A stretch of DNA of 64,000 nt from a virus (Duplodnaviria > Heunggongvirae > Uroviricota > Caudoviricetes): positions 51,550 through 115,549 of the IMG/VR virus record IMGVR_UViG_3300020045_006153, one strand, 5' to 3'. Of this stretch, positions 34,068 through 64,000 are shown one piece after another; within the stretch, counting starts at the first letter, position 1; each line of letters opens with the position of its first letter. The notes beneath the pieces are model-generated. The model searched no databases. It was given only the letters and a program-made list of their open reading frames with translations, and was not told where the DNA came from. The position numbers and the translations under genes were made by a program.

Positions 34068-34654
34068 ATACAACTGAAAAATTAAAATTAGCCGCAGAAG
34101 CAGGCGTTAAATTGCCGCATATTACAAATACAACTAACCCAATTGATTTCCCAATGAACACAAAAGACAGTTATTTAATTCATGATAAGGGCAATTTGCT
34201 CGACCTTGCAGAAGCACATCGATTTGATGTAGTTGTACAAGGTTGCAACTGTTTCAACACAATGGGCGGAGGCATTGCACGAGAAATTAAAACTCGGTAT
34301 CCGCATGTTGCAGCAGTTGATGCAGCAACTGTACGAGGCGACTATAATAAACTAGGCAACTGGACTAGTGAAAGTGTTGAAACTGAAATTCAACAAGGCG
34401 ATCAATTTGATATCATCAATGCGTATACTCAATACGATATGAGCACAGGCGAAGATGTATTTGAGTACGCAGCATTTGCACTAATTCTGCAAAAACTTGC
34501 ACATTGCTATCCAGATGGAACACGCTACGGATTCCCATATATCGGCATGGGACTTGCAAAAGGCGACTCGGTGCTTATTATTAGCATGTTAGAAGATTTT
34601 GCTGAAAAAGTTTCTAATAAAGGTGGGAGCGTTACGCTTGTAGAATTTGCATAA
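34064..34654 (+). CDS. macro domain protein (ADP-ribose binding/hydrolase-like)
   Basis: FDVVVQGCNCFNTMGGGIAREI resembles the macro-domain Gly-rich ADP-ribose-binding loop, 196 aa. Confidence 0.5.
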   Translation: MNTTEKLKLAAEAGVKLPHITNTTNPIDFPMNTKDSYLIHDKGNLLDLAEAHRFDVVVQGCNCFNTMGGGIAREIKTRYPHVAAVDAATVRGDYNKLGNWTSESVETEIQQGDQFDIINAYTQYDMSTGEDVFEYAAFALILQKLAHCYPDGTRYGFPYIGMGLAKGDSVLIISMLEDFAEKVSNKGGSVTLVEFA

Positions 34655-34857
34655 TGCAGATTGTAAAACCATTATTGATTAGAGACTTTTTACATTGGCA
34701 ACATGTCAAAGTCTCTAGTCTGCCGTGGGCATCTCGAGACGCTAGAAAACAGTGGCTATCGGAAAATGGTTCCGATAATAGAGTAGTTTGCGGTTTCACA
34801 CGATATTGGTTTGAAAACGAAAAAGATGCAATGTTGTTTATATTGAAGTGGACATGA
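34654..34857 (+). CDS. small protein of the ...DAxLFxLKW paralog family (distant member)
   Basis: C-terminus YWFENEKDAMLFILKWT. Confidence 0.5.
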   Translation: MQIVKPLLIRDFLHWQHVKVSSLPWASRDARKQWLSENGSDNRVVCGFTRYWFENEKDAMLFILKWT

Positions 34858-35496: not shown

Positions 35497-35739
35497 ATGG
35501 AAGTTATTGTATCTTGTGGCAACGGTGGCGATTGGGAATGGTATAACGACCAGTACTTGTGGCAATTGTGGATTGAACAAAATATAACAACTGAGTTCAA
35601 CACCGGCTCAGGAATTCATGTTAAGGCAGACGAACTTGCAGTGCGTTTTAAAAATCCATCTCACGCAACAATTTTTACTTTAAAGAGGCCAATGTGGATT
35701 ACGCATCACGATGTTATATTACCAAAACCAGTTGACTAA
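35497..35739 (+). CDS. hypothetical protein
   Basis: 80-aa ORF. Confidence 0.4.
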   Translation: MEVIVSCGNGGDWEWYNDQYLWQLWIEQNITTEFNTGSGIHVKADELAVRFKNPSHATIFTLKRPMWITHHDVILPKPVD

Positions 35740-43517: not shown

Positions 43518-43519
43518 AA

Positions 43520-49861: not shown

Positions 49862-50647
49862 ATGCGTTTACAAGAATTATTTGAGTCTGCAGAAGAAGAT
49901 AGGGCATTAATCTCCTTAGCAAATGAAGTATATAATAAAATAACACCGTACTTAGGTGATGTTGATTATAATACAATGTATACTTCTCCTGAACAAGAAT
50001 TAATTCAACTCGGTAAAATTGAAAATATAGCAGATACTCCGTTGCATGTATTAAATTCAGTGTCAATTGAACTCCAAGGTAATGATTCATTTATTGAACG
50101 TGCTAAAGATCCCGAAGAAGATGCGTCAATGTATGAAGGCAAAGAATTATCAGCATTCTATGAGGCTGACACAAATACCGTTGTTCTTAATTTAAAATTT
50201 ATAAACAGACATAGAACAAAAACTACAATCACACACGAACTCAGGCATGCATTAGACGAATTCAAATCAGGTTCATATCCCGGAAATGCAAAGCGATATT
50301 TTACTCCAAAGAAAAAGCAACATCAACGAGATGAAAAAGTGGCGTACCTTGCTAAACCTGCAGAAATAAATGCAAGATTTGTTGAGATTCTCGATGTGCT
50401 AACTAAGCGTATTCCTAAATGGTATGACAAACTACCAGAGAACGAAATCCGTTCAAGGTTACAACATGATTTAAATCAAATGTTTATAACATTCGATATT
50501 GCGAATTTATTTCCTGAAAAAACAAAGTCGAAAGATTATCAAAGATTGATCAAACGCGCATATCAATTTATGGAAAAAGAAATGCAACATGTTGAATCTG
50601 AGAGAGCAAGGGCAGGTACACCGAAGATTGCTTCGGGACGTTGGTAA
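49862..50647 (+). CDS. HExxH motif protein with N-terminal MRLQELFE motif
   Basis: ITHELRHALDE, 261 aa. Confidence 0.45.
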   Translation: MRLQELFESAEEDRALISLANEVYNKITPYLGDVDYNTMYTSPEQELIQLGKIENIADTPLHVLNSVSIELQGNDSFIERAKDPEEDASMYEGKELSAFYEADTNTVVLNLKFINRHRTKTTITHELRHALDEFKSGSYPGNAKRYFTPKKKQHQRDEKVAYLAKPAEINARFVEILDVLTKRIPKWYDKLPENEIRSRLQHDLNQMFITFDIANLFPEKTKSKDYQRLIKRAYQFMEKEMQHVESERARAGTPKIASGRW

Positions 50648-50649
50648 TT

Positions 50650-50994
50650 TAATCACTAAAAAGTGTTGACAAAATAAGTAGTTTACTATATAATTAATGT
50701 ATAGCGAAAGTTATACAGTTAGAGTGAGTACCGCAATTTAAATACAATAAATGGTATAGAACGCGGCCCGGTGGGGCTTTATACAATAGAAATGTTGTAC
50801 GCAGAAGGAATATCTAGACGGCAGAATGCCGATATGTGCCGCGCAGACACAATGTGGAGTAGGGTACTGCCGAATCAGTAATATGGTTGTGCTACGAAGT
50901 CCCTTCTAGGGTAGACAAACAACCAAACAATAAATTATTGTGTAGCAACTCACTCTGTTTTTAATTTTACATTTTTACACACAGAAAGAGTTTT
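50650..50994 (+). ncRNA. candidate structured non-coding RNA (unclassified) upstream of the TROVE-like/vWA gene
   Basis: 345-nt ORF-free, GC-enriched region with long-range complementarity (CGCGGC...GCCGCG) and local hairpins (CGGCAgaaTGCCG). Promoter TTGACA-17-TATAAT at 50668-50696. Confidence 0.3.
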
Positions 50995-51522
50995 ATGGAA
51001 TTTATTATGGGTATTCTGCTAGGAATTGCAGTTTATGCACTCACGTGGCCGGCATTGATTGGTCTGCTTATTATCGGTGTTATTTTTGAAGCAAATGATG
51101 CACATGCATGGGCAATGTTTACTGGAATAGTATCAGCAGTAATTGCATACTTCTTCTTCCACATCGATCCTATGTCAATTATCATGTATGTTATTGCATA
51201 CTTTGTAATTGGTTTTGTATGGTGTGCATGGCGTTACAAGCGTTATGCAAATGATATTGTTGAGAAGTTTAAAAACAGTAACAAATACGAACGTCAATCG
51301 GCTGTTGCACGTCTCCACCCAACCCGTATGTTGGATAAGTTGACTACTTGGGTAATAGTTTGGCCGTTTAGCGTAGTTGAGAATTTCACCGGTGATTTCA
51401 TCAAACTGGTTCAAATTGGTATTACTAAGATCTTCAAGGGTGTGTTCCACCGTATTTACGAAGTCGCTGTTAATCAACTGCTTCCTAAAGAAGACGAAGT
51501 AGAAGAAGACAAAGTTAAGTAA
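50995..51522 (+). CDS. membrane protein
   Basis: 175 aa, 3-4 TM segments, acidic C-terminus. Confidence 0.45.
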   Translation: MEFIMGILLGIAVYALTWPALIGLLIIGVIFEANDAHAWAMFTGIVSAVIAYFFFHIDPMSIIMYVIAYFVIGFVWCAWRYKRYANDIVEKFKNSNKYERQSAVARLHPTRMLDKLTTWVIVWPFSVVENFTGDFIKLVQIGITKIFKGVFHRIYEVAVNQLLPKEDEVEEDKVK

Positions 51523-51526
51523 AATA

Positions 51527-51556
51527 TTACTTGACGCAGAATGCAAAGTAGTGTAT
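51527..51556 (+). promoter_or_regulatory. promoter TTGACG-17-TATAAT
   Basis: Upstream of 51659. Confidence 0.4.
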
Positions 51557-51658
51557 AATTTACATTACTTTGTTTAGTAAGGGCACTAACATATACAGTG
51601 CCCTGTTGTATAGGTTATATACAGCAAATTTTTTAATAGTAACCTGAAGGAAAATAAA

Positions 51659-53056
51659 ATGAATAGTTTCGTAACCGCAGTTAACACTGTACCGACCATG
51701 ACACGCACCGAAAACGGTATGCGTACTCTGGAATCCAGCAAGAGCAATCTTGTTGACTTGTTCTTTGCTATTGGCGCAAGCCGTGGTAAGGACTTGAGCA
51801 CCGAGTTTGCTCGTGCACTTGCACAAGACTCTACCCTTGCTTTGCGTATGCTTGCATGGGCACGTGACGTGCGTGGTGGTGCAGGTGAACGTGAAGTTGT
51901 GCGCAAGATTCTGTTGAATCTTGAAAAGACCAACCCAGAAGCGTTGGATCGTATTTTGCCACACCTGGCAGAATTTGGTCGTTGGGATGACCTGTTGATC
52001 TTCAACACAAAGCCAGTTAAGGCTAAGGCCTTTACTATGATCGGTGATGCACTTCGTGTGCGTAACGGTCTGGCTGCAAAGTGGATGCCTCGTCAAGGAC
52101 CGCTTGCTGCAGAACTGCGTACTTTCTTTGGAATGTCGCCTAAGTTCTACCGTAAGTCGCTTGTTGAAATGAGCAAGACTGTTGAGCAAAACATGTGTGC
52201 TAACGATTGGACAAACATTGAGTACTCGCATGTGCCATCCGTGGCTGCATCGCGTTACCAAAAGGCGTTCAAGAAGCACGATGCAGTTGGTTACGATGCG
52301 TACAAGGCTAAGTTGGTTACCGGCGAAGCAAAGGTAAATGCTGCGGCAGTTTACCCATACGATGTTATCAAAGCACATAAGTTCGGTGGAGATAACATTG
52401 TTATTCAAGCCCAATGGGATGCACTGCCGAACTACATCGGTGATGAACTTGTTCTGCCAATGTGTGACGTTTCGGGTTCCATGGGTACCCCAGCTGGACA
52501 AAACGGAAACGTAACTTGTCTTGATGTGTGTTTGAGCCTTGGCTTGTACTTGGCTGATAAGAACACTGGACCGTTCAAGGACATGTTCCTTACGTTCTCT
52601 GCAAAGAGCAAGATCGAAGTATTGAAGGGAAACCTGCTTGCTAAATTGGCTCAATTGCAACGTGCACAATGGGATATGAACACTAACCTTAACTCGGCAT
52701 TTGAAGAAGTGCTGCGTGTTGCTAAGGCTGGAAATGTTAGTGCAAATGATATGCCTAAGTATGTGTTGATCATGTCGGATATGCAGTTTGATCGTTGTGC
52801 AAACTACGATGACTCTGCGATGCGTATGATCGAACGTAAGTATGCAGATGCTGGATACGTTGTCCCTAACATCGTATTCTGGAACTTGAATTCCCGTGCA
52901 GGACAATCTCCTGTGGAGTTCAACAAGAAGGGTGCTGCATTGGTCTCCGGATTCAGCCCAGCAATCCTAAAGAGCATTTTGGCTGCTGAGGATCTTGATC
53001 CTACCAGCGTAATGCTGCAAACTTTGAACAGCGACCGTTACTCTGTAATTGTCTAA
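51659..53056 (+). CDS. vWA-domain protein with N-terminal TROVE-like (Ro60/DUF2828-like) region
   Basis: MIDAS motif PMCDVSGSMG. N-terminal LVDLFFAIGASRG...ALRMLAWARD resembles the Ro60 TROVE helical repeats. 465 aa. Confidence 0.55.
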   Translation: MNSFVTAVNTVPTMTRTENGMRTLESSKSNLVDLFFAIGASRGKDLSTEFARALAQDSTLALRMLAWARDVRGGAGEREVVRKILLNLEKTNPEALDRILPHLAEFGRWDDLLIFNTKPVKAKAFTMIGDALRVRNGLAAKWMPRQGPLAAELRTFFGMSPKFYRKSLVEMSKTVEQNMCANDWTNIEYSHVPSVAASRYQKAFKKHDAVGYDAYKAKLVTGEAKVNAAAVYPYDVIKAHKFGGDNIVIQAQWDALPNYIGDELVLPMCDVSGSMGTPAGQNGNVTCLDVCLSLGLYLADKNTGPFKDMFLTFSAKSKIEVLKGNLLAKLAQLQRAQWDMNTNLNSAFEEVLRVAKAGNVSANDMPKYVLIMSDMQFDRCANYDDSAMRMIERKYADAGYVVPNIVFWNLNSRAGQSPVEFNKKGAALVSGFSPAILKSILAAEDLDPTSVMLQTLNSDRYSVIV

Positions 53057-53070
53057 GCTGGCAAAGACAA

Positions 53071-53096
53071 AAAGGCCCTTTGGGGCCTTTTTTATT
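53071..53096. terminator. intrinsic terminator (AAAGGCCC-tttg-GGGCCTTT + TTT)
   Basis: Strong GC stem plus T-tract. Confidence 0.7.
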
Positions 53097-53129
53097 GACT
53101 TAAAGTTCTGTAAAGCGTAAACTATAGAT

Positions 53130-53348
53130 ATGCGTTACGTTACACCAAACGACAAGTGGAAATATTGGAGGAGTTTGAGAACGATCTCAAACAACGCAGG
53201 CTTTAAATTCGCCACAAAATCACATAATGATCTTATGATCAAACAATATGGAATTGAATTAATGTTTAATGATATAGGATTTATGGTAAATCAATATAAA
53301 GTTGTAGACGAAGCAGCGTATCTAATATGGTTATTAAAGTATGCGTAA
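53130..53348 (+). CDS. small protein, possible divergent LKW-family member
   Basis: C-terminus VVDEAAYLIWLLKYA. Confidence 0.35.
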   Translation: MRYVTPNDKWKYWRSLRTISNNAGFKFATKSHNDLMIKQYGIELMFNDIGFMVNQYKVVDEAAYLIWLLKYA

Positions 53349-53523
53349 AATAAGAAAATGGTGCAGTCACTGCATGTCTAAAACTCATAACGATTATGAG
53401 TGTTGGAGTACAAGGGTTGTAAATAACATTCCAGCATATATCGCTCGTCCAGCGGAAGTGCCTCCTTTTTCGAAATCAGCACTTACTATAATTTGTTACT
53501 TAGTAGCGCATAACTTAATTTAA
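53341..53523 (+). CDS. small Cys/His-rich protein
   Basis: 60-aa ORF, CSHC...C. Confidence 0.3.
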   Translation: MRKIRKWCSHCMSKTHNDYECWSTRVVNNIPAYIARPAEVPPFSKSALTIICYLVAHNLI

Positions 53524-53990
53524 AATACACATTTACAACAGTTGCTAGCGTCGGCTTACATCGGGCGCCTATGATAACAGGACCTCGGGTCACTGGGACA
53601 GCAAATCTCCTCGGTTGAAAGGAGTACTTGGTCACTACCCTGCGGGATGATGATCGGATACGCCTTCGTACAACCGATTTGACCATTTGAAAAATTAAAA
53701 CTCAAAAGGCTAAAGAAGGGAGAAAAACCCTACGCTACATTGCTTGCTAGCATTAGCAATGTAGCCGCCGTCGTATAAAGACGCAACTCGAGGTACCGGA
53801 CGACCGCCTCTGTAATTGTTGTAATGCTGTGACTGTAAAGAACTCGGATAATGTTTTCTTGATTTTATTTTTGCCCTTTCTGGGCAAAGAGTGACCATTG
53901 AATCTGGATAATATCTCTCTAATCTAATATGTGTTGAACCGCAGGTGAAAACACATACGAGCAACGCTCGTATTATACGATAGTCTTAAA
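53524..53990 (+). ncRNA. candidate large structured non-coding RNA (unclassified)
   Basis: About 470-nt ORF-poor GC-enriched region with multiple perfect hairpins (GCTACATTGC-12nt-GCAATGTAGC; TTGCCC-tttct-GGGCAA; ACGAGC-aac-GCTCGT; ATCGG...CCGAT). Confidence 0.3.
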
Positions 53991-53991
53991 G

Positions 53992-54020
53992 TTGACAGCG
54001 TAGGTAAATCCTGTTATAAT
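53992..54020 (+). promoter_or_regulatory. phage promoter class: TTGACA-N5-GGTAAATCCTGTT-ATAAT
   Basis: Conserved spacer element. Confidence 0.5.
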
Positions 54021-54040
54021 TAAGTTAAGAAAGATAACCT

Positions 54041-54877
54041 ATGACTAAATTTAATCTCGTATCAGACATGCATTTAAACTTCGGAGACATTGTAATGCCC
54101 GGAGGTGATTGTCTCATTATGGCCGGTGATATCATGGAAGCAGGTGACCTGCGTTTAGCAGACAATGCACAGAAAAATGTATTCATTGCTGATAGGTACC
54201 GCAGGTTTATCAAAGAAGAACTCAGCAAGTACAATAAAGTAATCTATGTGCTAGGTAATCACGAGCACTACGATAACGCATATCAGAATACGTTAAGCCG
54301 CCTGCAAGATGAAATGCCAATGCATGTAGAAATTCTTGAGGGCACTTCTACAACATTTGACGGAGTGCATGTATTCGGTGGTACTTTCTGGACTGATATG
54401 AACAAAGGTGATCCTATTACTATGCATACTGTAGAAGAAGGTATGAATGATTTTAATTGCATTCGTCATGAAAACGGTACTAAAGTAAAAATTGCATACG
54501 GCGGAAGTTACTATACTAACAAGTTTAAACCAGCGTTTGTTAAGAACGTTTTTCATGAAACTGTTGCAAAACTCAGCAAATTTTGTGAAGAACATGCCGA
54601 AGATAAGGTGGTTGTTGTAAGTCATCATGCACCTACTGAACTAAGCCTAGATCCTATGTATAACAAACAATATCATATGAATGGTGCTTATCATAGTAGG
54701 TTAGGTGATTATATTATTGATCGCCCTTGCATTAAAGCATGGGTACACGGGCATGTGCACACGTTTAATGATTACAGCATGGGCGAAAACTGTCGTGTTA
54801 TTAGTAATCCTCGAGGATATCACGGATATGAAGTACTTGCTAATAGTTTTGATCCAACATTTAGTTTCGAAGTATAA
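54041..54877 (+). CDS. calcineurin-like metallophosphoesterase
   Basis: GDIMEAGD and GNHEHYD motifs, 278 aa. Confidence 0.7.
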   Translation: MTKFNLVSDMHLNFGDIVMPGGDCLIMAGDIMEAGDLRLADNAQKNVFIADRYRRFIKEELSKYNKVIYVLGNHEHYDNAYQNTLSRLQDEMPMHVEILEGTSTTFDGVHVFGGTFWTDMNKGDPITMHTVEEGMNDFNCIRHENGTKVKIAYGGSYYTNKFKPAFVKNVFHETVAKLSKFCEEHAEDKVVVVSHHAPTELSLDPMYNKQYHMNGAYHSRLGDYIIDRPCIKAWVHGHVHTFNDYSMGENCRVISNPRGYHGYEVLANSFDPTFSFEV

Positions 54878-55206
54878 TGTTTGTAGACTATGATGTTAAT
54901 AGTATGTATGCTAGTATTCCTCCATCTGCACTACCTGAACAACGAATGGAGTTAGGAGAAACATATGTAAACGAAGCTTCGTCGTATGCTACTGAGCAAG
55001 ACGAAGTTGAGTTTTATTGGGTAAAGCCTGCTTGGTCCCTTACTAATTGGGATTACAATGCATCTATATACGATTGGTGTGTTAACAAGTTTGGAAAACC
55101 TGAATGGAATGTAAGTAAAGGGTATTCTAGATGGACAGGTAGTGATGGTAAATTTTATTTCAGAGATGAAAGAGATCGTACTATGTTTATTTTAAAGTGG
55201 TCATAA
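54877..55206 (+). CDS. LKW-family small protein 1
   Basis: ...DWCVNKFGKPEWN...GKFYFRDERDRTMFILKWS. Confidence 0.55.
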   Translation: MFVDYDVNSMYASIPPSALPEQRMELGETYVNEASSYATEQDEVEFYWVKPAWSLTNWDYNASIYDWCVNKFGKPEWNVSKGYSRWTGSDGKFYFRDERDRTMFILKWS

Positions 55207-55415
55207 TGATAAAATATAGATTGCCCTCAATAAATGATCCTCTTTGGACACAATATGCTTACTTAGGGTTTAGTGATTCAGGATACATCGGGTTTAGAAA
55301 ATTTGTAGAGGCCAAAGTCTCAGGTGCAAAAGTAGAAGGAACAACTGCTCGCGGTCTTACGCTATACTTTGAAGAAGAAAAGGACTTTACACTATTTGTA
55401 TTGAAATGGACATGA
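55197..55415 (+). CDS. LKW-family small protein 2
   Basis: ...LTLYFEEEKDFTLFVLKWT. Confidence 0.55.
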   Translation: MVIMIKYRLPSINDPLWTQYAYLGFSDSGYIGFRKFVEAKVSGAKVEGTTARGLTLYFEEEKDFTLFVLKWT

Positions 55416-55492
55416 CTATAGAATGTACAGATTTTATGACAGTGTTTGATACATTGGAAAAGGTAAGTGGCATAAAGTTTCGCTGAACACCA

Positions 55493-55630
55493 TGTATTAC
55501 AATCATAATCAGATCATTGAATGGCTTAATGCAAATGCTAAGGGCAGTGTACAGTTCCATGCTGCATTATTTTTGTTTGAAAATAAGCAAGATGCAACTA
55601 TGTTTGCACTAAGATGGGGTCATGTATGAA
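55493..55630 (+). CDS. LKW-family small protein 3 (45 aa, unlisted)
   Basis: MYYNHNQIIEWLNANAKGSVQFHAALFLFENKQDATMFALRWGHV; coordinates +/-1. Confidence 0.4.
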
Positions 55631-55823
55631 ACTTGTTTTTCCTTATAGTGTAAAATATCCTAGGACACAAAATTGGTACAATGGTGATTGGAGAAAATTA
55701 AGTAATTGGTGCAACGGCATTGGCAAGTGTGCAGTAGATTGGGAATACATGAATGAATGTTTCCTTTTTACTCGGGAACGAGACAAGATGCTGTTTTTAT
55801 TAAAATGGGGAGATTTACATTGA
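55614..55823 (+). CDS. LKW-family small protein 4
   Basis: ...WCNGIGKCAVDWEYMNECFLFTRERDKMLFLLKWGDLH. Confidence 0.55.
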   Translation: MGSCMKLVFPYSVKYPRTQNWYNGDWRKLSNWCNGIGKCAVDWEYMNECFLFTRERDKMLFLLKWGDLH

Positions 55824-56149
55824 CTACTTTTAAAAAACTATTAACGCAAGGTGTAGCAACTAGTTCTGAATTAACTATTCTAGCAGGAAGCAATCGATCC
55901 GGCAAATCGTTTTATGCACAATCTTTCAAAGAATGGAATAAACGAAATCAAGTTAAATTTAAAAAAATATCTGAAGCAATAGTCGACGGAGAGCAATGGT
56001 ATACTGTAAGTATAGGAAATGATTTATTACCTTGGCTTAATACGCATCCTGCTAATCGATATTATATACACCCAGGTACCCGCTATATTACAACAATAGT
56101 AGATTTGCATTATTCATTATATACAATCGGATTAATAAAATGGAGTTAA
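55757..56149 (+). CDS. hypothetical protein with P-loop-like GSNRSGKS (start uncertain; possible TTG start near 55820)
   Basis: 130-aa ORF, ends IGLIKWS. Confidence 0.35.
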   Translation: MFPFYSGTRQDAVFIKMGRFTLTTFKKLLTQGVATSSELTILAGSNRSGKSFYAQSFKEWNKRNQVKFKKISEAIVDGEQWYTVSIGNDLLPWLNTHPANRYYIHPGTRYITTIVDLHYSLYTIGLIKWS

Positions 56150-56610
56150 CTCATTTATCGGATAATGAGTTATTGAATTACCTTACTTTATTTCATACGC
56201 ATGATCCTATAGTAAATAGGCTTGTTAAGATGTTAAGTTCGTCTGTTATGCAGGACCAAGTTGACGAGTTAGTTAAAATAGGAATGAACTTGCAAACATG
56301 GGAATTAGATTATGAAGGTATTGATTATCCACTTAACGAATATATCTATAAACTTGAAAGAGAGATTGGATATCGCGATGAAGAAATGGTTGAATACGAA
56401 AGTAAGTTAATCGAATTAAAGTTAGAACGTGATAGTTTAAAAACCCGAGGAGTTGCAGAATTAATCAGCGAACTATATGGAGAGATATCATTTGCAGACC
56501 AACGCATTTCTAAAGTAAATCAAGAACTTAATGTTGCTAGAAGAAACGAAGAACTTGCAATGAGTAAGTTAAAGATGTGGACATATCTCAAAACAGATAC
56601 TGCTGTATGA
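56140..56610 (+). CDS. coiled-coil protein within the array
   Basis: 156-aa ORF. Confidence 0.45.
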   Translation: MELTHLSDNELLNYLTLFHTHDPIVNRLVKMLSSSVMQDQVDELVKIGMNLQTWELDYEGIDYPLNEYIYKLEREIGYRDEEMVEYESKLIELKLERDSLKTRGVAELISELYGEISFADQRISKVNQELNVARRNEELAMSKLKMWTYLKTDTAV

Positions 56611-56945
56611 TACATTTTAGACTAACGCCAGAAGAACAAAAGATTAACAAAAAACTATGGTTGAATGAAGAATACGGCCGTATAATATATGCAGATCATT
56701 ACATCGCAACTAGGTTCCCTAGGCTAATGTCTAAAAAGAAATATACATTCAGTCGCGCTAAATGGTACATAGCAGAGTTTAATGTCACTTGTTACTTCGA
56801 AGTAGATAAATGGTGTGAAAAACAATTCGGAAAACATGACAACCGTCCAAATGCTTGGAGTCGATGGTGGCATAGGTATGAATCAAGCATTCACTTCCGC
56901 GATGAGAAAGATTACATATTGTTTGTACTGCGATGGGGCGGATGA
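56577..56945 (+). CDS. LKW-family small protein 5
   Basis: ...DKWCEKQFGKHDNRPNAWSRWWHRYESSIHFRDEKDYILFVLRWGG. Confidence 0.55.
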   Translation: MDISQNRYCCMIHFRLTPEEQKINKKLWLNEEYGRIIYADHYIATRFPRLMSKKKYTFSRAKWYIAEFNVTCYFEVDKWCEKQFGKHDNRPNAWSRWWHRYESSIHFRDEKDYILFVLRWGG

Positions 56946-57154
56946 CAAACTGGAATGGCATGGAATGGAAGAAGGGGGCTTGGCATAAATGGTTTGCTTG
57001 GTTTCCTGTTAAGTTATGTGGGAAGTCTCAATGGTGGTACAGATGGAGATGGCTAACTACTGTATATCGTCGAGAACTACTTACACGAAGTGATATGGAA
57101 ATTTACAGTTTGTGGATATACGGTGATCTTTTTGATGTATTGAGATATGAATGA
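56933..57154 (+). CDS. Trp/Arg-rich small protein
   Basis: 73-aa ORF. Confidence 0.35.
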   Translation: MGRMTNWNGMEWKKGAWHKWFAWFPVKLCGKSQWWYRWRWLTTVYRRELLTRSDMEIYSLWIYGDLFDVLRYE

Positions 57155-57408
57155 AGAAACCTAAAAAACAAAAACCTAAAGTTATTACACCAAATTCGTT
57201 AATAGTTGATTACGGCTTAAAACGTGTAATAATGCCACATCGTGTATCTCTTATGCTATTCTATGATCATGAATTACTAGAAATTGATAAGTGGTGTCAG
57301 AAAACATTTGCAACTGATACATGGAAACGTTCGGGTATATTTCCCGGATATATACACTTTGTACATGCAAAAGATGCTACAATGTTTACATTAAAGTGGG
57401 CAAAATGA
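57151..57408 (+). CDS. LKW-family small protein 6
   Basis: ...DKWCQKTFATDTWKRSGIFPGYIHFVHAKDATMFTLKWAK. Confidence 0.55.
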   Translation: MKKPKKQKPKVITPNSLIVDYGLKRVIMPHRVSLMLFYDHELLEIDKWCQKTFATDTWKRSGIFPGYIHFVHAKDATMFTLKWAK

Positions 57409-57605
57409 AAACACTGCCAGTAGTAGATCTTTGGAAAACAGAAGCATGGTGTTCCAAAATCATAAGTCGTAGAACATATTGGTTGCATAATAAATTAGGT
57501 GGCAAGGGCTGGAAAATTATAAGACGTAATAGTGTTTGGGAATTAGAGTTGCTTGATGAAAAACAAGCATTGCTCGCAATATTAAAATTTAGCGACAGCA
57601 AATGA
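57405..57605 (+). CDS. LKW-family small protein 7 (variant ending ILKFSDSK)
   Basis: ATGA-overlap start 57405, in frame with track ORF 57321..57605. Confidence 0.45.
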   Translation: MKTLPVVDLWKTEAWCSKIISRRTYWLHNKLGGKGWKIIRRNSVWELELLDEKQALLAILKFSDSK

Positions 57606-57835
57606 AATTTTGGAATAAACAACATGAAGTTAGAAAACAGTTCTGGACAAAAGTCTTAGGGCCTGCGCCTGATTGGCCTTTTCCACGTAGAGATAATTAT
57701 AGCATGGATGCAAACACAGCAAAACATATGTGCCAAAATATGCGTAGTAAGGGCAAATTTTATTTCAACAATACTGCATGGTATTTTGAAAATAAGCACG
57801 ATGCAACTATATTTTTATTGAAGATATCAAAATGA
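57602..57835 (+). CDS. LKW-family small protein 8
   Basis: ...NTAWYFENKHDATIFLLKISK. Confidence 0.5.
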   Translation: MKFWNKQHEVRKQFWTKVLGPAPDWPFPRRDNYSMDANTAKHMCQNMRSKGKFYFNNTAWYFENKHDATIFLLKISK

Positions 57836-58104
57836 GCAGAGCAGTAAAAATAACAGAAAATCAATGGTTTACAATTCAGTTAAAAATTGCAACTCATTAT
57901 CCAAAAAGTGTATTAATGATTCGTGAGAAGATGAAAAAAGTTTTAGGATTTACAACTAGAACTAATCGATATTACGATGCAAATAAGTATGAATGGATAG
58001 AGGAAATTTATCTAGATTTCTTCAATGAACCTAAACGAACTATGTTCCTACTAAAGTACTCAGATATTTTAAACACAGAACCTATTGTTCTTAGGCAAAT
58101 ATGA
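57832..58104 (+). CDS. LKW-family small protein 9
   Basis: ...FFNEPKRTMFLLKYSD... Confidence 0.5.
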   Translation: MSRAVKITENQWFTIQLKIATHYPKSVLMIREKMKKVLGFTTRTNRYYDANKYEWIEEIYLDFFNEPKRTMFLLKYSDILNTEPIVLRQI

Positions 58105-58355
58105 CATACGATGAACAATATGCACAAGCGTTAAAGAATTCTTCAAAACGAATAGCGGACAGTATCGATGCTGAAATTTTATTTGCAATACTTATAAGTG
58201 CAGGCTGGACTAGTGTTTATGTAAAAGGGCGTAATACTAGTGAGATAGAAACATGGGTTAAAAAATACTGCGTTGGAAAATACAGGGTAACAACTGATTT
58301 CTATCTTTTCGAGAAAGAAAAAGATGCAACCTTGTTTATCTTAAAATGGGCTTGA
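58101..58355 (+). CDS. LKW-family small protein 10
   Basis: ...FYLFEKEKDATLFILKWA. Confidence 0.55.
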   Translation: MTYDEQYAQALKNSSKRIADSIDAEILFAILISAGWTSVYVKGRNTSEIETWVKKYCVGKYRVTTDFYLFEKEKDATLFILKWA

Positions 58356-58380
58356 CAACTTAACAAAATTCGTGTATAAT
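58346..58380 (+). promoter_or_regulatory. promoter TTGACA-17-TATAAT
   Basis: Upstream of clpS. Confidence 0.4.
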
Positions 58381-58406
58381 AAATATATCAACTAACAGAG
58401 AAACTA

Positions 58407-58709
58407 ATGGCAAATACAGATATCGCACAACGTGAAACAACTAAGATTAAACTCAAAGAGCCTAGCAAGTATAAAGTACTTGTGATAAACGACGATTATA
58501 CTCCTGTAGATTTTGTTATTGTTATGCTTATGGAAATTTTTAAACATACTGACGAATCTGCGGTTGCATTAACAAAGCAAGTGCACGAACAAGGACGTGC
58601 AATTGTAGGTACATATACTTATGAAATTGCAGAACAGAAATGCATTGAATCTACTAACTTAGCACGTGAACATGGTTATCCATTAGTGATTAAAGTAGAA
58701 GCGGTATAA
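58407..58709 (+). CDS. clpS: ATP-dependent Clp protease adaptor ClpS
   Basis: YKVLVINDDYTPVDFVIVMLMEIF matches the ClpS core (VxLxNDDYTPMxFVxxVL), 100 aa. Confidence 0.8.
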   Translation: MANTDIAQRETTKIKLKEPSKYKVLVINDDYTPVDFVIVMLMEIFKHTDESAVALTKQVHEQGRAIVGTYTYEIAEQKCIESTNLAREHGYPLVIKVEAV

Positions 58710-59452
58710 TTATATTTTTTGAATCCTTCTTCTAATCCATTAAAAGGTAAGTTGAAGGATTCAAGTATAGTACTATCACCAATTAAATCATCTCCTGTTC
58801 TAGGAGATTCGATAACTGTCTTAACTTCATTAAGAACACAAAATCTCATTGCTTGTTCTAGCAATGTAAACTTTTCTTTATACACGATATCAAAATTGTG
58901 TTCTTCTATTGTTTCGTTGATTACTAAATCAACAATAGGAAAAATATCCTCAAGATTAAAATAATCAAATTTCCTATTTTCTCCAATTACAAATCGGTCA
59001 CTCGCATATAAATGCTTAAAGAAACGAGAGTTGTTTTCACTGTGATGATAATTTCCAAATATTCTTAAATTATAAAAATTCTCAGTCATTAAGCAACTAT
59101 ATTTGATTAATTTCTTAGCCATACCATATTGGGAATTAAACGCATCGTATGCACTGCCAAAATGAATTAATTTTTTAAATAAATGCCGTTGATCTCGAAT
59201 GTTATTCCACATTTGCATTGCTACTGTGCGATACATTGGATCCGCAGATCCTAAGTTTTCTCTTCCTACTAATGCAGTATGTATAACAATATCAACTGTA
59301 TGAGTATTAAAGAAATGCTCAACTGCTATTTTATCTAAACAATCTAAATCTATTTTGTTAGGTGCATATACTGTATGTTGTGCAGACAAATAGGCGGTAA
59401 GATGTTTGGCAATAAATCCATTACCGCCTGTGATTAAAATATTCATAAGCAA
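58676..59452 (-). CDS. NAD(P)-dependent sugar epimerase/reductase (SDR family)
   Basis: N-terminal ILITGGNGFIAKHL Rossmann motif, 258 aa. Confidence 0.6.
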   Translation of the reverse strand: MLMNILITGGNGFIAKHLTAYLSAQHTVYAPNKIDLDCLDKIAVEHFFNTHTVDIVIHTALVGRENLGSADPMYRTVAMQMWNNIRDQRHLFKKLIHFGSAYDAFNSQYGMAKKLIKYSCLMTENFYNLRIFGNYHHSENNSRFFKHLYASDRFVIGENRKFDYFNLEDIFPIVDLVINETIEEHNFDIVYKEKFTLLEQAMRFCVLNEVKTVIESPRTGDDLIGDSTILESFNLPFNGLEEGFKKYNYTASTLITNG

Positions 59453-59973
59453 GGGTGTCCTTGATCTTTTTTACTAATAATAGGCTGAGGTGAAGATACA
59501 GGCCAATTAATTTCAAGTTTCGGGTCATTCCAAAAGATACCTTCATCTAATTCAGGAGAATGATAGTGTGTTACCTTGTAATTAACTGCTGTATTAGGTT
59601 CTAATGTTAAGTACCCGTGATAACATCCTGGCGGAACTAATAACATAACTGGTTGATATTCAGCTATCGTTAATGTTACACATTGTTTGTAAGTTGGACT
59701 ATTTACGCGTCCGTCGACTACTACGTCAAATATGCTACCATTAAGTACTGATACTAACTTATACTGAGGTACTGATAATCTGTGCAAGCCCCGTATTGTA
59801 TCTGTCATGTCATTCCACGATACCATATCTTGTACAAACCGATCATGTATTCCTAAATCAGGAGCCCATTCGTCGCGCCAACTTTCATTTATCCATCCTC
59901 GTTGGTCTGTATACCGTGTAAGTGAAAATAATTTAACACCAGAAATATCAAATTCCTGTATATCTTTTACCAT
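59443..59973 (-). CDS. RmlC-like cupin sugar-nucleotide 3,5-epimerase
   Basis: 176 aa, cupin fold signature around YHGY; adjacent to dehydratase genes. Confidence 0.55.
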   Translation of the reverse strand: MVKDIQEFDISGVKLFSLTRYTDQRGWINESWRDEWAPDLGIHDRFVQDMVSWNDMTDTIRGLHRLSVPQYKLVSVLNGSIFDVVVDGRVNSPTYKQCVTLTIAEYQPVMLLVPPGCYHGYLTLEPNTAVNYKVTHYHSPELDEGIFWNDPKLEINWPVSSPQPIISKKDQGHPCL

Positions 59974-60914
59974 ATAAAGTTTTTAGAATAGTAACGGACA
60001 ATACTTTTTAATTCAGTATCAAATAGCGCTTCGGGCCTCCATCCTAATCCTTGCAGTTTGTTGTCATTAATTGCATAACGTACATCTTGTCCTTGACGCA
60101 TAACGCTTAGGTCTAAATATTTCTGAGGATTGCCAGGTAGTTTCATTAATTTAATAATTTTCTCAGCAACAATAATATTTTTCTCTTCGTAGTTCCCTGC
60201 AATATTAAAAATCTCATTCTTAACATCCATGTCGATAATTGTAAGTACAGCATTTGCGGTATCACTTGCATGTAACCAAGTTCGGCGCGGAAGACCGCAA
60301 TCGTGTAGTGGTGCTAATTTACCTAACGCAAGATGTTTAATTGTGTGCGGAATAAACTTTTCAGTATATTGTCCAATGCCGTAATTATTTGTAGGACGTA
60401 CAATAATGTAAGGTACTCCATAAGTGCGCGACCAAGCAGTAATTAGCATGTCTGCTGCTGCTTTAGTTGCACTGTATGGATTGGAAGGCTTTAGCAAATC
60501 TGTTTCAGAATGCGAACCAGTTACAATATCTCCGTACACTTCGTCTGTGCTAAAATGCAATAACGTAGGCATTTTAAATTTGTATTTTTGTTTGATTAGT
60601 TTAAGCAAATTGTGCACACCATCAATATTACTTTTTACAAATACATCAGACGATGCAATTGAATTGTCTACGTGAGTTTCTGCTGCTGTATTAATAATGT
60701 AATCACACTCGTAAAGGGTACTCATATCGTTAATATCAATTTGCTCAAATGAAAAGTTATCGTACCTTTCGAGTTCGGGCAACAACTTCACATTAGCAGC
60801 ATATGTAATTTTATCAATACCTCTAACATACCATCCTCGTTCTAAACATGCTTTAGTAACATGATATCCAATAAATCCTAAACATCCTGTTACATATACT
60901 ATCTTCTTACTCAT
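59967..60914 (-). CDS. NDP-hexose 4,6-dehydratase-like extended SDR
   Basis: VYVTGCLGFIGYHV Rossmann motif, catalytic YSATKAAADML (YxxxK), 315 aa. Confidence 0.6.
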   Translation of the reverse strand: MSKKIVYVTGCLGFIGYHVTKACLERGWYVRGIDKITYAANVKLLPELERYDNFSFEQIDINDMSTLYECDYIINTAAETHVDNSIASSDVFVKSNIDGVHNLLKLIKQKYKFKMPTLLHFSTDEVYGDIVTGSHSETDLLKPSNPYSATKAAADMLITAWSRTYGVPYIIVRPTNNYGIGQYTEKFIPHTIKHLALGKLAPLHDCGLPRRTWLHASDTANAVLTIIDMDVKNEIFNIAGNYEEKNIIVAEKIIKLMKLPGNPQKYLDLSVMRQGQDVRYAINDNKLQGLGWRPEALFDTELKSIVRYYSKNFIW

Positions 60915-61708
60915 TTATAATTCCTAATACTTTGCTCTAAGCCTGCTAATTTTATATTTTCGATTGTTAATCGGTTAGCAGCACCGGTATAATTTGTTCT
61001 CGAAACATCTACTATGTTTACTTGTGCAGTTAAACGATGAATATCAATAAACTTATTCAACACCTCGCTCAATCTTAATTTTTCTGCATAGACACAATTA
61101 AGGTCTTTGTATAATAACTTGCTATTTAAGCAGTATATAACTACTCTACAAAAATCCTCTGCACTAAAGAAATCAAAATCTTTGTCAATTACATCAATTG
61201 ACTCGTTGCGCATTAATTTTGCAAACAATCTATCTGCGTGTTCTGATTTATCAAAACATCCAAATAGTCGTAGTGTAACAAACTTAGGATTGTCCATGCA
61301 TAATCGAGCAATTACATTTTTAACATATCCGTAATTATCAGAAGGGACTTGATCTGCAATTGAATTTTCACATCTACAGTCTATATCAGTTTCTCTGTCA
61401 AATTCCGCACCTGATCCAATGTTAATGTACTTTGTAAACAATCCTTTTAAATTATAGAAGTTTAAAAATATGCCAAGTATGTTTTTAACATCATTGCTGT
61501 CTAGATTATCTATCTTTGATTTCTCGCCTGGCATTGCACAATTAATAACTGCGTATGGATTCTCTTTAATAAGCAAATTCATAACAGAAAAATAATCATT
61601 AAGATCTACATCGTCTCTTGTAATAGGAACAATGTTAACTCCGTGTATATTGTTTACTAGATATTTGCCAATGAATCCATTAGCACCTAAAATTAAAACT
61701 TTTTTCAT
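60911..61708 (-). CDS. NAD-dependent epimerase/reductase (SDR family)
   Basis: VLILGANGFIGKYL, 265 aa. Confidence 0.55.
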   Translation of the reverse strand: MKKVLILGANGFIGKYLVNNIHGVNIVPITRDDVDLNDYFSVMNLLIKENPYAVINCAMPGEKSKIDNLDSNDVKNILGIFLNFYNLKGLFTKYINIGSGAEFDRETDIDCRCENSIADQVPSDNYGYVKNVIARLCMDNPKFVTLRLFGCFDKSEHADRLFAKLMRNESIDVIDKDFDFFSAEDFCRVVIYCLNSKLLYKDLNCVYAEKLRLSEVLNKFIDIHRLTAQVNIVDVSRTNYTGAANRLTIENIKLAGLEQSIRNYK

Positions 61709-62238
61709 TTTCCATAGTCCGGGAATTCAACTAGAATAGAACTCGTATGATGATTATATGCTTCTTGATATTGTCTAAAAATTTGTCTATGATCCGTAAG
61801 TTCAACTATATTAATTGTTTTGCACATTAAACGAAATGCTTCTGAAAAATTACCTTTATGTTGATCTTGTGGATCAATTGGATTTTCAGATCCAACGGCA
61901 ACTCGAATAATAACTTTTGGATTACAATGTCTGTTAAACATTATTAATTTATCAAGATGGTTAACAATTTGGTCTGTTGCACTCAAGAGAAAATTCCAAC
62001 GAGGCACTACGCTAATTGGAACAAATCCATTTAATGCTAATCCTGTGCTAACGCCTATTTGAAAGTTTTCTGCAACAGGAAATTCTATCTTCTTATCTGC
62101 AGGAACTTCTACCAAACTCTCATAACACCCTGTTCCTGCATAGGAAACAGATTGCCCAAGAAATATAGTATCTCCTTGTTCAGCAAGCCAATTCATTGAA
62201 CGCTTTAGTTCATCATTGTATTCTTTGTTTAGTGACAT
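61705..62238 (-). CDS. transketolase-like TPP enzyme, C-terminal (pyrimidine-binding) subunit
   Basis: 177 aa, adjacent to the N-terminal subunit gene. Confidence 0.45.
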   Translation of the reverse strand: MSLNKEYNDELKRSMNWLAEQGDTIFLGQSVSYAGTGCYESLVEVPADKKIEFPVAENFQIGVSTGLALNGFVPISVVPRWNFLLSATDQIVNHLDKLIMFNRHCNPKVIIRVAVGSENPIDPQDQHKGNFSEAFRLMCKTINIVELTDHRQIFRQYQEAYNHHTSSILVEFPDYGK

Positions 62239-62861
62239 TAAAATTGCACCCTCTTTCCCGCGCCAGCGTGTGGATACTTTAGATTTTTGTACTTGTAGTA
62301 AATGAGATTAGTACCTTCGTACCATTGTCTGTTTTGATGGGGCAAGTACCATTTATCAGATCCCCATACTTCTTTAGTAGGAGTCATTACACTAAGTTCG
62401 TTATCCTCAACTACAAATGTAATAGGTAATTCTTGGGCTACTGCATACTTGTATGCTTCTGCCCAAGCACCTGTTTCTGCAGACATATCACCTGTCCAGC
62501 ACCATACATGTTCGCCTGTTCCTTTTAACTTTGCAGCAAGTGCTATACCAGTTGCAATACTAGGGATACCGCCGACTATGCTTGAACAAATAAATTTATA
62601 TTCTGGCAAGTTCATTACCATGCTTTTACCTTGCATGATCTTTTCCTTTAGTAGGTCTTTAGGAATTCCTTTTAATAAGGCCTGATAATGATTGCGCCAT
62701 GTACAGCAAACCCAATCTTTCCCAACATTTACTTTTTCAAATACGCGCATAATATTTTCTTCATTATTTGCATATAAGTGAATAGGGGCTTTAATTTGTG
62801 CGGTATTAAACAGATCCCCTATCTCTGTTTCGAAGTCAATTAGTTCTTGTGCAGTTATCAT
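62238..62861 (-). CDS. transketolase-like TPP enzyme, N-terminal (TPP-binding) subunit
   Basis: GDM...27 aa...DN thiamine-diphosphate binding motif, 207 aa. Confidence 0.45.
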   Translation of the reverse strand: MITAQELIDFETEIGDLFNTAQIKAPIHLYANNEENIMRVFEKVNVGKDWVCCTWRNHYQALLKGIPKDLLKEKIMQGKSMVMNLPEYKFICSSIVGGIPSIATGIALAAKLKGTGEHVWCWTGDMSAETGAWAEAYKYAVAQELPITFVVEDNELSVMTPTKEVWGSDKWYLPHQNRQWYEGTNLIYYKYKNLKYPHAGAGKRVQF

Positions 62862-64000
62862 AGATATAAGGACATGAATCCGTCAACTTTCTCACCGATG
62901 TATGCAATTTGTTCTGGAGTAATAACAGGACTGCATCCATGGAAGAAAGTATTACGCATTGTATGCGTTGCAACTGGAAAATTATCACGTGCATCTGCAG
63001 GATTCATTAAATGACTGTAGGCTGGCTGCAACATTATGTTCCCTGCAAAATATGGACGAGTTTGAATCAAGTTTTCTTCTAGGTAATCTACGATGTCCAT
63101 ACGCTTGAAAGGAGCATCTTCTCGAATAGTTAATGGAAACGCAAACCAACTAACGTCTGCCTTATCCTGTGGCCGAGGGAGGTGGAAGAATTGTTCGTAT
63201 TTCTCATACACTGCAAACAGCAAATTATAATTGCGCTGACGCAAAGCGTGTATCTCCGGAAGTTTCTTAATCTGTTCAAGACCCATAGCACTTTGGATCT
63301 CAATAGGCTTGAGGTTATAACCGATTTCATCATATACATATTTGTGATCAAAAACTTCACCGGGCATTTCAGGAATCCATTCTTGGAAACGCTTGCCACA
63401 ACTACCGCATTTTAATTTGTTTGCTTCGGGACCTACACAATAGCAACCACGTCCCCATTCACGCAACGAACGCACAATAATTTCTTGTTGTGAGTCGTTC
63501 ATTGCAACAAATCCGCCTTCGCCCATTGTCATATGGTGTGCTGGATAAAAAGAGCAAGATGCAAATGTACCAAATGATCCCAGTGGCTTTCCATCAAACG
63601 TAGAACCAAGACCATCACAGCAATCTTCAAGCAATACAAGATTGTACTTGTTTACAAGTTCCATAACCTTATCCATATTTGGAGGATTACCAAGAACGTG
63701 TGCAAATGTAATTACTTTGATATCTGGATCAGCAGCAAGGATCTTTTCTGCGTGATCTAAGTCAATGTTTAGTGTATCAATTTCGATATCACAGAACACA
63801 GGAGTGAAGCCAACTTGAATTGTTGGGTTGAGTGTAGTAGGAAAGCCTGCAATAGGCATTAATACTTTTGTTCCCTTGGGAAAGTTATAACCACGTTTGC
63901 TAGTAAGTGCAGTCATCATGAGCAAATTAGCCGATGATCCTGAGTTAGTTAAAACACCTTTTGTTTTGCCAAATTGCTTTGGAAACTGATGTTCAAACTT
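62858..64000 (-). CDS. DegT/DnrJ/EryC1-family PLP/PMP-dependent NDP-sugar 3-dehydratase-like enzyme (ColD/E1-like), partial
   Basis: SFYPAHHMTMGEGG has His where the DegT aminotransferase Lys sits (as in ColD/AscC dehydratases). Cys-rich CYCVGPEANKLKCGSCG. Reading frame stays open upstream of M63925 to the window end (…TNSGSSANLLMM). Confidence 0.55.
   Translation of the reverse strand, partial: KFEHQFPKQFGKTKGVLTNSGSSANLLMMTALTSKRGYNFPKGTKVLMPIAGFPTTLNPTIQVGFTPVFCDIEIDTLNIDLDHAEKILAADPDIKVITFAHVLGNPPNMDKVMELVNKYNLVLLEDCCDGLGSTFDGKPLGSFGTFASCSFYPAHHMTMGEGGFVAMNDSQQEIIVRSLREWGRGCYCVGPEANKLKCGSCGKRFQEWIPEMPGEVFDHKYVYDEIGYNLKPIEIQSAMGLEQIKKLPEIHALRQRNYNLLFAVYEKYEQFFHLPRPQDKADVSWFAFPLTIREDAPFKRMDIVDYLEENLIQTRPYFAGNIMLQPAYSHLMNPADARDNFPVATHTMRNTFFHGCSPVITPEQIAYIGEKVDGFMSLYL

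Follow-up and report, generated by a model that had tools for sequence, protein, structure and literature searches.

A tandem array of small paralogous genes in an uncultured T4-related jumbo phage, and the large family of phage proteins to which it belongs

Here we describe a family of small phage proteins, represented by a tandem gene array at 54877-58355 on the plus strand of a 64,000-nucleotide (nt) stretch of the IMG/VR virus record IMGVR_UViG_3300020045_006153 (positions 51,550 to 115,549 of that record; the whole stretch is called the window below). Each member (45-112 amino acids, aa) is, according to structure models, essentially one domain of about 65 aa with the order beta-alpha-beta-beta-alpha. 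The family is very large and common among aquatic phages that have not been cultured; it was found solely on viral or metagenomic contigs of large uncultured phages, nearly always in same-strand arrays. It is new to curated resources; its kind, clustered small early phage proteins, is already known. The interpretation that we prefer, at a probability of roughly 45%, is that the proteins are expressed early and bind different targets of host or phage origin, with the conserved domain as their common scaffold.

Composition and transcription of the array

The open reading frames (ORFs) listed for 52500-60000 include an unbroken series of small ones on the plus strand, most of which end in the conserved tail; a 278-aa gene (54041-54877) precedes the series, and a 100-aa gene (58407-58709) follows it. 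As an independent test of membership, a profile made from homologues outside the window only was run on the 1,000 window ORFs of at least 30 aa on both strands. Ten ORFs, none of them on the minus strand, scored at E < 1e-3; nine are in the array and one is at 34621-34854. In order of significance, these were 56568-56942 (6e-26), 54865-55203 (4.6e-17), 57796-58101 (4e-15), 57151-57405 (8.5e-13), 55587-55820 (4.4e-9), 55450-55626 (1e-8), 34621-34854 (7.9e-8), 58095-58352 (2.8e-7), 55170-55412 (6.7e-6), and 57593-57832 (4.5e-4). Profile-profile comparison with hhalign added 57405-57605 as a member (96%), confirmed 57832-58104 (97%), rated 55757-56149 as probable (74%, E 3e-5), and left 56140-56610 and 56933-57154 as non-members. 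On the strength of these external-profile and profile-profile results, the 13 plus-strand ORFs in 54877-58355 divide into ten firm members, one probable member, and two unrelated proteins.

The tandem array of paralogues proposed in an initial annotation of this DNA is thus borne out by the external profile, with the ORFs and their tails found at the proposed positions on the plus strand, and only the count of about 12 has to be lowered slightly. The additional copy that it placed among genes for nicotinamide adenine dinucleotide (NAD) salvage is real, and both flanking genes, a metallophosphoesterase and clpS, were recovered by Pfam; the ORF 53130..53348, regarded there as a likely divergent copy, is only a possible one. 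A simple pattern for the tail, applied to the whole window, matched 12 plus-strand and four minus-strand ORFs, and the minus-strand matches as well as two on the plus strand (16237 and 31518) are weak chance matches. The starts at 55206, 55626, 56607, and 57405 in the list below were refined from exact gene products of the Joint Genome Institute (JGI); pI stands for isoelectric point.

53992..54020, plus strand: perfect sigma-70-type promoter, TTGACA-N17-TATAAT with a TG-extended -10 (consensus match), 20 nt 5' of the phosphoesterase gene
54041..54877, plus strand: metallophosphoesterase, calcineurin-like, first gene of the operon (Pfam PF00149, E 6e-8)
54877..55206, plus strand: family member, 109 aa, acidic (pI 4.6), tail FYFRDERDRTMFILKWS (external profile E 4.6e-17)
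55206..55415, plus strand: family member P0013, 69 aa, tail LYFEEEKDFTLFVLKWT (E 6.7e-6; exact JGI product)
55492..55629, plus strand: family member P0002, 45 aa, lacking strand 1 (external profile E 1e-8)
55626..55823, plus strand: family member P0006, 65 aa, tail FLFTRERDKMLFLLKWGDLH (external profile E 4.4e-9)
55757..56149, plus strand: probable divergent member, tail VDLHYSLYTIGLIKWS, P-loop-like N-terminal piece ELTILAGSNRSGKSFYAQ (hhalign 74%)
56140..56610, plus strand: unrelated 156-aa protein, coiled-coil-like by eye (no family signal, no Pfam match)
56607..56945, plus strand: family member P0020, 112 aa, subfamily A (KYTFSRAKWY...FRDEKDYILFVLRWGG; external profile E 6e-26)
56933..57154, plus strand: unrelated Trp-rich 73-aa ORF (…WFAWFPVKL…WWYRWRW…; hhalign 0.7%, no Pfam match)
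57151..57408, plus strand: family member P0001, 85 aa, basic (pI 9.9), EIDKWCQKTF...IHFVHAKDATMFTLKWAK (external profile E 8.5e-13)
57405..57605, plus strand: family member P0007, 66 aa, tail ELELLDEKQALLAILKFSDSK (hhalign 96%, E 1e-9; homologue P0009)
57602..57835, plus strand: family member P0004, 77 aa, tail WYFENKHDATIFLLKISK (external profile E 4.5e-4; family profile E 1.7e-11)
57832..58104, plus strand: family member P0082, 90 aa, subfamily B (…SVLMIREKMKKVLGFT…LDFFNEPKRTMFLLKYSD…; E 4e-15; hhalign 97%)
58101..58355, plus strand: family member P0003, 84 aa, tail FYLFEKEKDATLFILKWA, last gene of the array (external profile E 2.8e-7)
58352..58380, plus strand: next perfect sigma-70-type promoter (consensus match), before clpS, marking the end of the operon
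58407..58709, plus strand: ClpS homologue, 100 aa, downstream neighbour (Pfam PF02617, E 2e-28)
34654..34857, plus strand: dispersed family member P0005, 67 aa, in the NAD-salvage cluster (external profile E 7.9e-8)
35497..35739, plus strand: possible member (…AVRFKNPSHATIFTLKRP…), weak (external profile E 0.27; hhalign 62% over 19 columns only)
53130..53348, plus strand: possible divergent member (…YKVVDEAAYLIWLLKYA), weak (external profile E 2.6; hhalign 60%, E 9e-5)

P0002 may be truncated, since it has no strand 1; its 72-aa homologue P0008 has an extra N-terminal strand. The true start of 55757..56149 is uncertain, and homologues of this ORF are present in 16 of the loci described below, those of P0003 in 48. 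Both unrelated ORFs are regular co-residents of such arrays in other phages, with homologues of 56140..56610 in 23 fetched array loci and of 56933..57154 in five. Subfamily A is the most conserved one, P0020 being 60-75% identical to about 75 homologues, and P0082 carries a short C-terminal extension and is related to the 77-98-aa proteins P0089-P0105.

From the promoter at 53992, the phosphoesterase gene, and the 13 small ORFs, we infer that the region is transcribed as a single unit, tightly packed and with all genes in one orientation. In most array genes the beginning overlaps the stop codon of the gene before, the first case being the member at 54877, whose start overlaps that of the phosphoesterase gene; translation is probably coupled because several starts are placed in this way. 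Perfect TTGACA-N16-18-TATAAT sites occur 12 times in the window (between 12302 and 58380, 11 on the plus strand) against 0.16 expected, among them 14117, 28336, 39817, 53992, and 58352, and several have a similar spacer (…GTAGGTAAA.CCTGT), so that they look like a conserved class of early promoters. The T4-type late motif TATAAATA was found four times in the window against 8.6 expected, and not in the array. Since a perfect sigma-70-type promoter precedes the operon, early expression is likely and delivery of the products with the virion unlikely.

The conserved domain and its distribution

The initial annotation described a fixed C-terminal module on a hypervariable N-terminus, and this description has to be revised. 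In homologue alignments, conservation reaches well 5' of the tail into the rest of the protein; the consensus opens with a hydrophobic strand, in many cases WY, continues with a helix containing W-C-x-x-x-F-G and a second strand, often W-S-R-W, and ends in F-x-F-[RE]-D-E-x-D-x-x-x-F-x-L-[KR]-W. An AlphaFold2 model of P0020, based on an 86-sequence alignment, consists of a strand (residues 54-57), a helix (60-74), two further strands (87-91 and 94-97), and a second helix (100-110), with block means of the predicted local distance difference test score (pLDDT) of 86-96 for residues 51-110 and with residues 1-40 disordered. The model of P0001, obtained from a separate 81-sequence alignment, has the same order of elements at a domain pLDDT of about 70-90, and the common fold for which such modelling had been suggested is therefore seen in both proteins. 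In these models the tail forms strand 3 and helix 2 of the domain of about 65 aa, and most of the supposedly hypervariable N-terminus belongs to the first, less conserved half of the same domain, the remainder being a short disordered extension. The motif DKWCxKxFG, which had also been pointed out, is real and corresponds to helix 1.

Residues conserved across paralogues are mostly large hydrophobic or aromatic ones, and we read them as core residues; among them are the Trp and Phe-Gly in helix 1, the F-x-F of the third strand, the F-x-L-[KR]-W of helix 2, and the acidic turn that precedes this helix. Other positions, the net charge, and the N-terminal extensions vary among paralogues and are kept within each orthologous line. 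The window members span pI 4.6-9.9, the interquartile range for 266 domains is 5.1-8.8, and Trp (7.5%) and Phe (7.2%) are unusually abundant in the domain.

The family was not recognised by the initial annotation, and it has no match in named collections. Ten window members gave no Pfam-A match below E 0.02 and a single PHROGs v4 match (E 0.021), and for 81 and 86 homologues compared with Pfam, PHROGs, and NCBIfam 20 the conserved domain had no significant match; the significant matches of homologues (Gp23, major head protein) are confined to N-terminal add-ons, and a few further library matches are marginal (E 1e-4 to 1e-2). The best match of the family profile among PDB sequences had E 0.28, that of Foldseek in the PDB E 0.49, and among predicted viral structures Foldseek returned only "uncharacterized protein [uncultured Caudovirales phage]" (best E 1.6e-3). 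The names of relatives in NCBI, JGI, and UniProt are "hypothetical" or "uncharacterized", plus one "predicted phage tail protein", which we take to be a mislabel caused by a capsid-like N-terminus. One literature search for paralogous genes in T4-like jumbo phages, either from freshwater or assembled from metagenomes, yielded nothing relevant.

The modelled fold is a generic two-layer alpha+beta sandwich, similar to the KH-like, ACT, and RRM sandwiches in that two helices lie on one face of a three-stranded sheet; superposition on these folds gave about 2 Å over about 50 residues at 4-17% sequence identity. In KH domains the order of elements is beta-alpha-alpha-beta-beta-alpha for type I and alpha-beta-beta-alpha-alpha-beta for type II, and a GXXG loop joins two helices; a KH assignment was rejected because the models have one helix only between strands 1 and 2 and the consensus no GXXG. 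RRM is a four-stranded beta-alpha-beta-beta-alpha-beta fold with the motifs RNP1 and RNP2; this assignment was rejected as well, the models having three strands, the protein ending after helix 2, and the RNP motifs missing from the consensus. Likewise, a homing endonuclease or another mobile-element enzyme was discarded, as Pfam gave no match to GIY-YIG, HNH, LAGLIDADG, or similar catalytic domains in the 10 window and 81 homologous proteins, and the longest family ORF, from stop to stop, is 179 aa.

When 5.8 billion proteins were searched with a profile, homologues turned up on other contigs, 95 of them in the second round. HMMER, run exhaustively on 1.84 billion cluster representatives, returned 1,811 with E <= 1e-3, of which 67 had E <= 1e-10; with few exceptions they are 45-160 aa long. 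Among the best 150 of the 1,811, all are 51-155 aa long except one protein of 1,176 aa, which matches on a short repeated stretch only. The 1,811 clusters (50% identity) and the as many as 29 copies in 17 kb of a single genome place it among the larger unnamed families of small phage proteins. The family is phage-specific: its homologues come only from viral or metagenomic contigs, and the single pattern scanned, which is specific to subfamily A, found no relative in 185,579 species-representative cellular genomes. In addition, three family queries had no tblastn match in 50,697 GenBank phage records (E up to 1 for two of the queries); that the searched cultured phages carry no detectable copy explains why curated resources miss the family.

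From IMG/VR, 78 loci were fetched and joined with three earlier ones, giving 81 loci with 15,954 ORFs, some of the loci being overlapping copies of the same region. They hold 547 family members, all on the strand of the query member, at 1-29 per locus (29 within 17 kb in L062). The domain ends no more than two residues before the stop codon in 495 of 541 members (91%), and the length limit of 179 aa excludes fusions to larger proteins. Only two ORFs contain two domains. Two tandem domains were observed in P0167 (141 aa), at 10216-10464 of L034, and at 8959-9213 of L052, which implies a unit able to duplicate within a gene. The order phosphoesterase, array, ClpS recurs in the 76-kb contig L001, where HSP20 also adjoins the array; elsewhere the neighbours are a DEAD helicase, an Rv2179c-like exonuclease, DnaJ with a ClpB-like ATPase (L082), or DHFR/ThyA. 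The most frequent recognisable neighbour that we noticed is a full-length gene for the Rv2179c-like 3'-5' exonuclease, at most about 10 kb from the array in 33 of 84 loci.

The initial annotation called the family rapidly diversifying; our data do not support this. Every window paralogue has its nearest counterpart in other contigs (31-72% identity, mostly over most of the length) and not in its own array: identity to the outside counterpart is 72% for 56607, 66% for 55626 (an ORF in L033), and 56% for 57151 (in L001), whereas the best pairs within the window typically have 23-35% over 40-60 residues, with two short stretches of 67%. Because the closer counterparts are in other phages, the paralogues are, by sequence comparison, old and individually conserved. 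Comparison of moderately diverged relatives gave 0.04-0.16 for the ratio of nonsynonymous to synonymous substitution rates (dN/dS) in the subfamily-A domain. Phages differ in the number of copies and in the order of the genes.

N-terminal mosaics in subfamily A

A separate question is posed by subfamily A, whose members appear to keep selected peptide copies of the phage's own catalytic motifs. The N-terminal extensions of relatives of the 56607 protein are ordered mosaics of short pieces resembling the most conserved motifs of other phage genes (carriers P0019-P0088 and P0106-P0203; loci L001, L002, L009, L010, and L082-L084). One piece, 'M..TIxVDLE(T/S)…P.VLG', resembles the N-terminus of the Rv2179c-like (DEDD) exonuclease, which in the window begins MAKALMVDLETLAVSPDAVVLSLG. 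Another, 'GEMxxISAGRQTGKSY', has the arrangement strand/P-loop/helix, and a PDB profile search with it returned generic P-loop NTPases at E > 0.1; its derivation from the large terminase was given up as weakly supported (one PHROG match, E 0.0056), and it is called P-loop-like here. The third, 'IYxSNLCKEIxLPTKP', carried by some of the proteins and in some followed by 'LCTLGAF', resembles the active-site loop of ribonucleotide reductase (RNR) alpha. These RNR pieces are 72-79% identical over 11-18 aa to residues 438-457 of the window's RNR alpha, and the PHROG matches to RNR are individually weak (E 0.006-0.27) and fall on the same profile region in five proteins.

In place of the RNR piece, other relatives have a capsid piece, 'LPMIxxxxPxLIAQxIxGVQPMxxxxGxIF' (Pfam Gp23, E 6e-9; PHROG major head protein, E 3e-10), and one such capsid-like piece matched annotated capsid genes in 413 phage records by tblastn. 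It covers positions 4-61 of about 376 in the Gp23 profile (PF07068) within proteins of about 120 aa, and these proteins were not accepted as Gp23 capsid proteins, since only fragments match. Hybrids such as 'NLCNEIVGVQPM' join RNR and capsid pieces at a common NLxxEI. The capsid-like piece presumably coincides with the Gol region of T4 gp23, a conserved block at the N-terminus of T4-type major capsid proteins. Gol is the most conserved part of gp23 (PMC3014915). In contrast to Gol in T4 gp23, the piece described here, 30-45 aa long, is joined to a small domain of unrelated kind, and its gene belongs to a probable early operon and is not a capsid gene. In the window itself, the extension of P0020 is a decayed remnant that has lost the capsid piece, and the ORF 55757-56149, with the P-loop-like piece, is the best of the 1,000 window ORFs against a profile of the mosaics (E 0.0035).

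Several explanations at the DNA level were considered and dropped. Introns, inteins, or homing cassettes interrupting capsid, terminase, or RNR genes do not fit, as the mosaic genes sit in arrays of small genes instead; nor does conservation of the DNA as a target of homing endonucleases, as synonymous codons vary freely. Ongoing gene conversion from the parent genes is not supported: when the exonuclease-like piece in L010 was compared by eye with the exonuclease gene of that locus, more than half of the positions that can be compared differed. For the extensions, dN/dS could be computed in 19 pairs, most of which gave 0.11-0.32 and three 0.57-0.68. Given the location in arrays, the varied synonymous codons, and the low dN/dS, the pieces are translated and under purifying selection as peptides, and divergence that is discordant between extension and domain in some pairs indicates recombination between the two.

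We know of no mechanism that explains why a phage would keep selected peptide copies of its own capsid, RNR, P-loop, and exonuclease motifs. The domain might be a carrier scaffold that, at least in subfamily A, displays peptide copies of the most conserved motifs from phage core proteins, which would act as early decoys or competitors for host immune sensors, proteases, or modifying enzymes, but from the sequences at hand we consider this very unlikely. Bacterial sensors have been reported to recognise the capsid protein, DNA polymerase, and helicase or RecA-type ATPases (bioRxiv 10.64898/2026.01.04.697583).

Genomic context, possible functions, and known systems

The JGI contig that carries the exact array proteins is 353,233 bp long. 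We conclude that the source is an uncultured jumbo phage, T4-related because homologues of rIIA and rIIB are present (41319-44596; PHROG E 1e-129 and 6e-69). The window also codes for class I RNR alpha and beta, an N6/N4 DNA methylase, the Rv2179c-like exonuclease, a NAD-salvage set at 25354-26505, 32576-33577, and 35816-37276 (NAMPT, a NadR-like AAA_28 protein, and a cytidyltransferase/Nudix protein), and a ClpX homologue at 21591-22832 (zf-C4_ClpX, AAA_2, and ClpB_D2-small), with no adjoining ClpP found. Neither the array nor the region 50000-60000 had nucleotide identity to GenBank phages. Just 5' of the array region, at 51659-53056, lies a gene for a 465-aa protein with DUF2828 and DUF7788 domains. 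Downstream of clpS, the coding strand switches, and seven large minus-strand ORFs with overlapping ends occupy 58676-63925, several of which resemble, by eye, nucleotide-sugar enzymes (epimerase/dehydratase, dTDP-sugar isomerase); the sign of the GC skew changes at this switch.

The interpretation as binders is favoured because the pattern of conservation can be read as a common scaffold with line-specific surfaces, and the early, accessory, and counter-defence-type genes of the window (rIIA/rIIB, NAMPT with the nucleotidyltransferase/Nudix protein, ClpX, and ClpS) speak for it. Host RNA polymerase would transcribe the array early, its genes would be translated in a coupled manner, and each paralogue would bind stoichiometrically, by means of the common scaffold, a different host or phage macromolecule, as small early proteins of T4-type phages do in host takeover and anti-defence. 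From the context, an anti-defence or host-targeting role, as the initial annotation had suggested, is plausible. Several facts weigh against this interpretation. The fold is generic, and therefore neither supports nor excludes protein binding; seven of the 11 window members are basic (pI > 8.8), which would fit nucleic-acid binding equally well; the absolute C-terminal placement of the domain is not explained by a simple binder model; and the promoters are consensus matches only. Moreover, since the gene neighbours differ between phages, there is no conserved functional partner that points to a pathway.

If the members bound nucleic acids instead, as small KH/RRM/ACT-like sandwich modules, they would be early regulators of transcription, translation, or mRNA or DNA metabolism. 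The basic charge of most window members and the abundance of Trp and Phe, which could stack on bases, agree with this, but the consensus has neither the GXXG loop nor RNP1 and RNP2, the sheet has three strands and not four, and the interquartile range of pI extends to 5.1, some members being strongly acidic; on balance, we regard such a function as unlikely. The vicinity of Clp genes suggests another role, that of substrates, adaptors, or modulators of the Clp/chaperone machinery of phage or host, recognised by an invariant free C-terminus (…L-[KR]-W-[SATG]-COOH). ClpS directly 3' of the array both here and in L001, ClpX in the window, HSP20 in L001, DnaJ and the ClpB-like ATPase in L082, and the domain end at the stop codon in 91% of members are all in line with it. 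However, the C-terminal residues are predicted at high confidence to lie within helix 2 and are therefore probably no exposed tag, ClpS recognises N-termini and not C-termini, and the neighbours at other loci are unrelated, so that we hold this role to be quite unlikely.

Similarly low is the probability that the genes are selfish or recombination-prone cassettes, whose multiplicity would reflect their own spread and not a benefit to the phage. The range of 1-29 copies per locus, the gene order only partly kept between the window and L001, the pieces of other phage genes captured in the extensions of subfamily A, and the recombination indicated between extension and domain could all be explained in this way. 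Against it, the proteins have no nuclease, integrase, or other Pfam domain and no fusions, each paralogue is kept across phages under purifying selection, and all copies are co-oriented in operons. Finally, the initial annotation listed injected proteins among the options. Packaging in the capsid and injection with the DNA would suit proteins of small size, and the major-capsid block with which some relatives of the 56607 protein begin could in principle mediate association with the capsid. However, the array has a host sigma-70-type promoter and no late-type one, its members share no N-terminal targeting sequence, and its neighbours are early or metabolic and not structural, which makes injection extremely unlikely. 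The T4-type internal head proteins IPI-III are marked by a shared N-terminal capsid-targeting sequence, cut by the prohead protease, and by late expression; identity with such proteins was rejected, as the N-termini are unrelated between members and the promoter is of the sigma-70 type without a late motif.

Should the members prove to be early binders with specific targets, each array would amount to a ready-made set of natural inhibitors of host functions or defences from abundant aquatic phage-host systems, and the domain would be a compact scaffold of about 65 aa.

Three kinds of known systems are comparable with the array. Like the expanded families of jumbo phages and giant viruses, it is a lineage-specific tandem expansion in a very large viral genome. 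Those families (ankyrin, BTB, and similar) consist of repeat or adaptor domains that are already named, whereas the array domain is without a match in Pfam, PHROGs, NCBIfam, and the PDB. Anti-defence clusters, such as anti-CRISPR loci and anti-defence islands, also contain 50-150-aa proteins without detectable homologues in early or accessory regions, and the array likewise lies near genes of the counter-defence type (NAD salvage, rII). Known clusters of this sort are mostly composed of unrelated proteins, often with a helix-turn-helix regulator, and no such regulator was seen in the array. The early host-takeover ORFs of T4-type and SPO1-type phages are, as here, very small, tightly packed, and co-oriented behind strong host-type promoters in an accessory region, and the genome of the array shares rIIA and rIIB with T4. 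These modules (alc, ndd, asiA, and arn in the T4 hyperplastic region, gp37-60 in SPO1) are collections of unrelated proteins; in contrast, most genes of the array have one domain in common, and arrays of this family occur in many phages.

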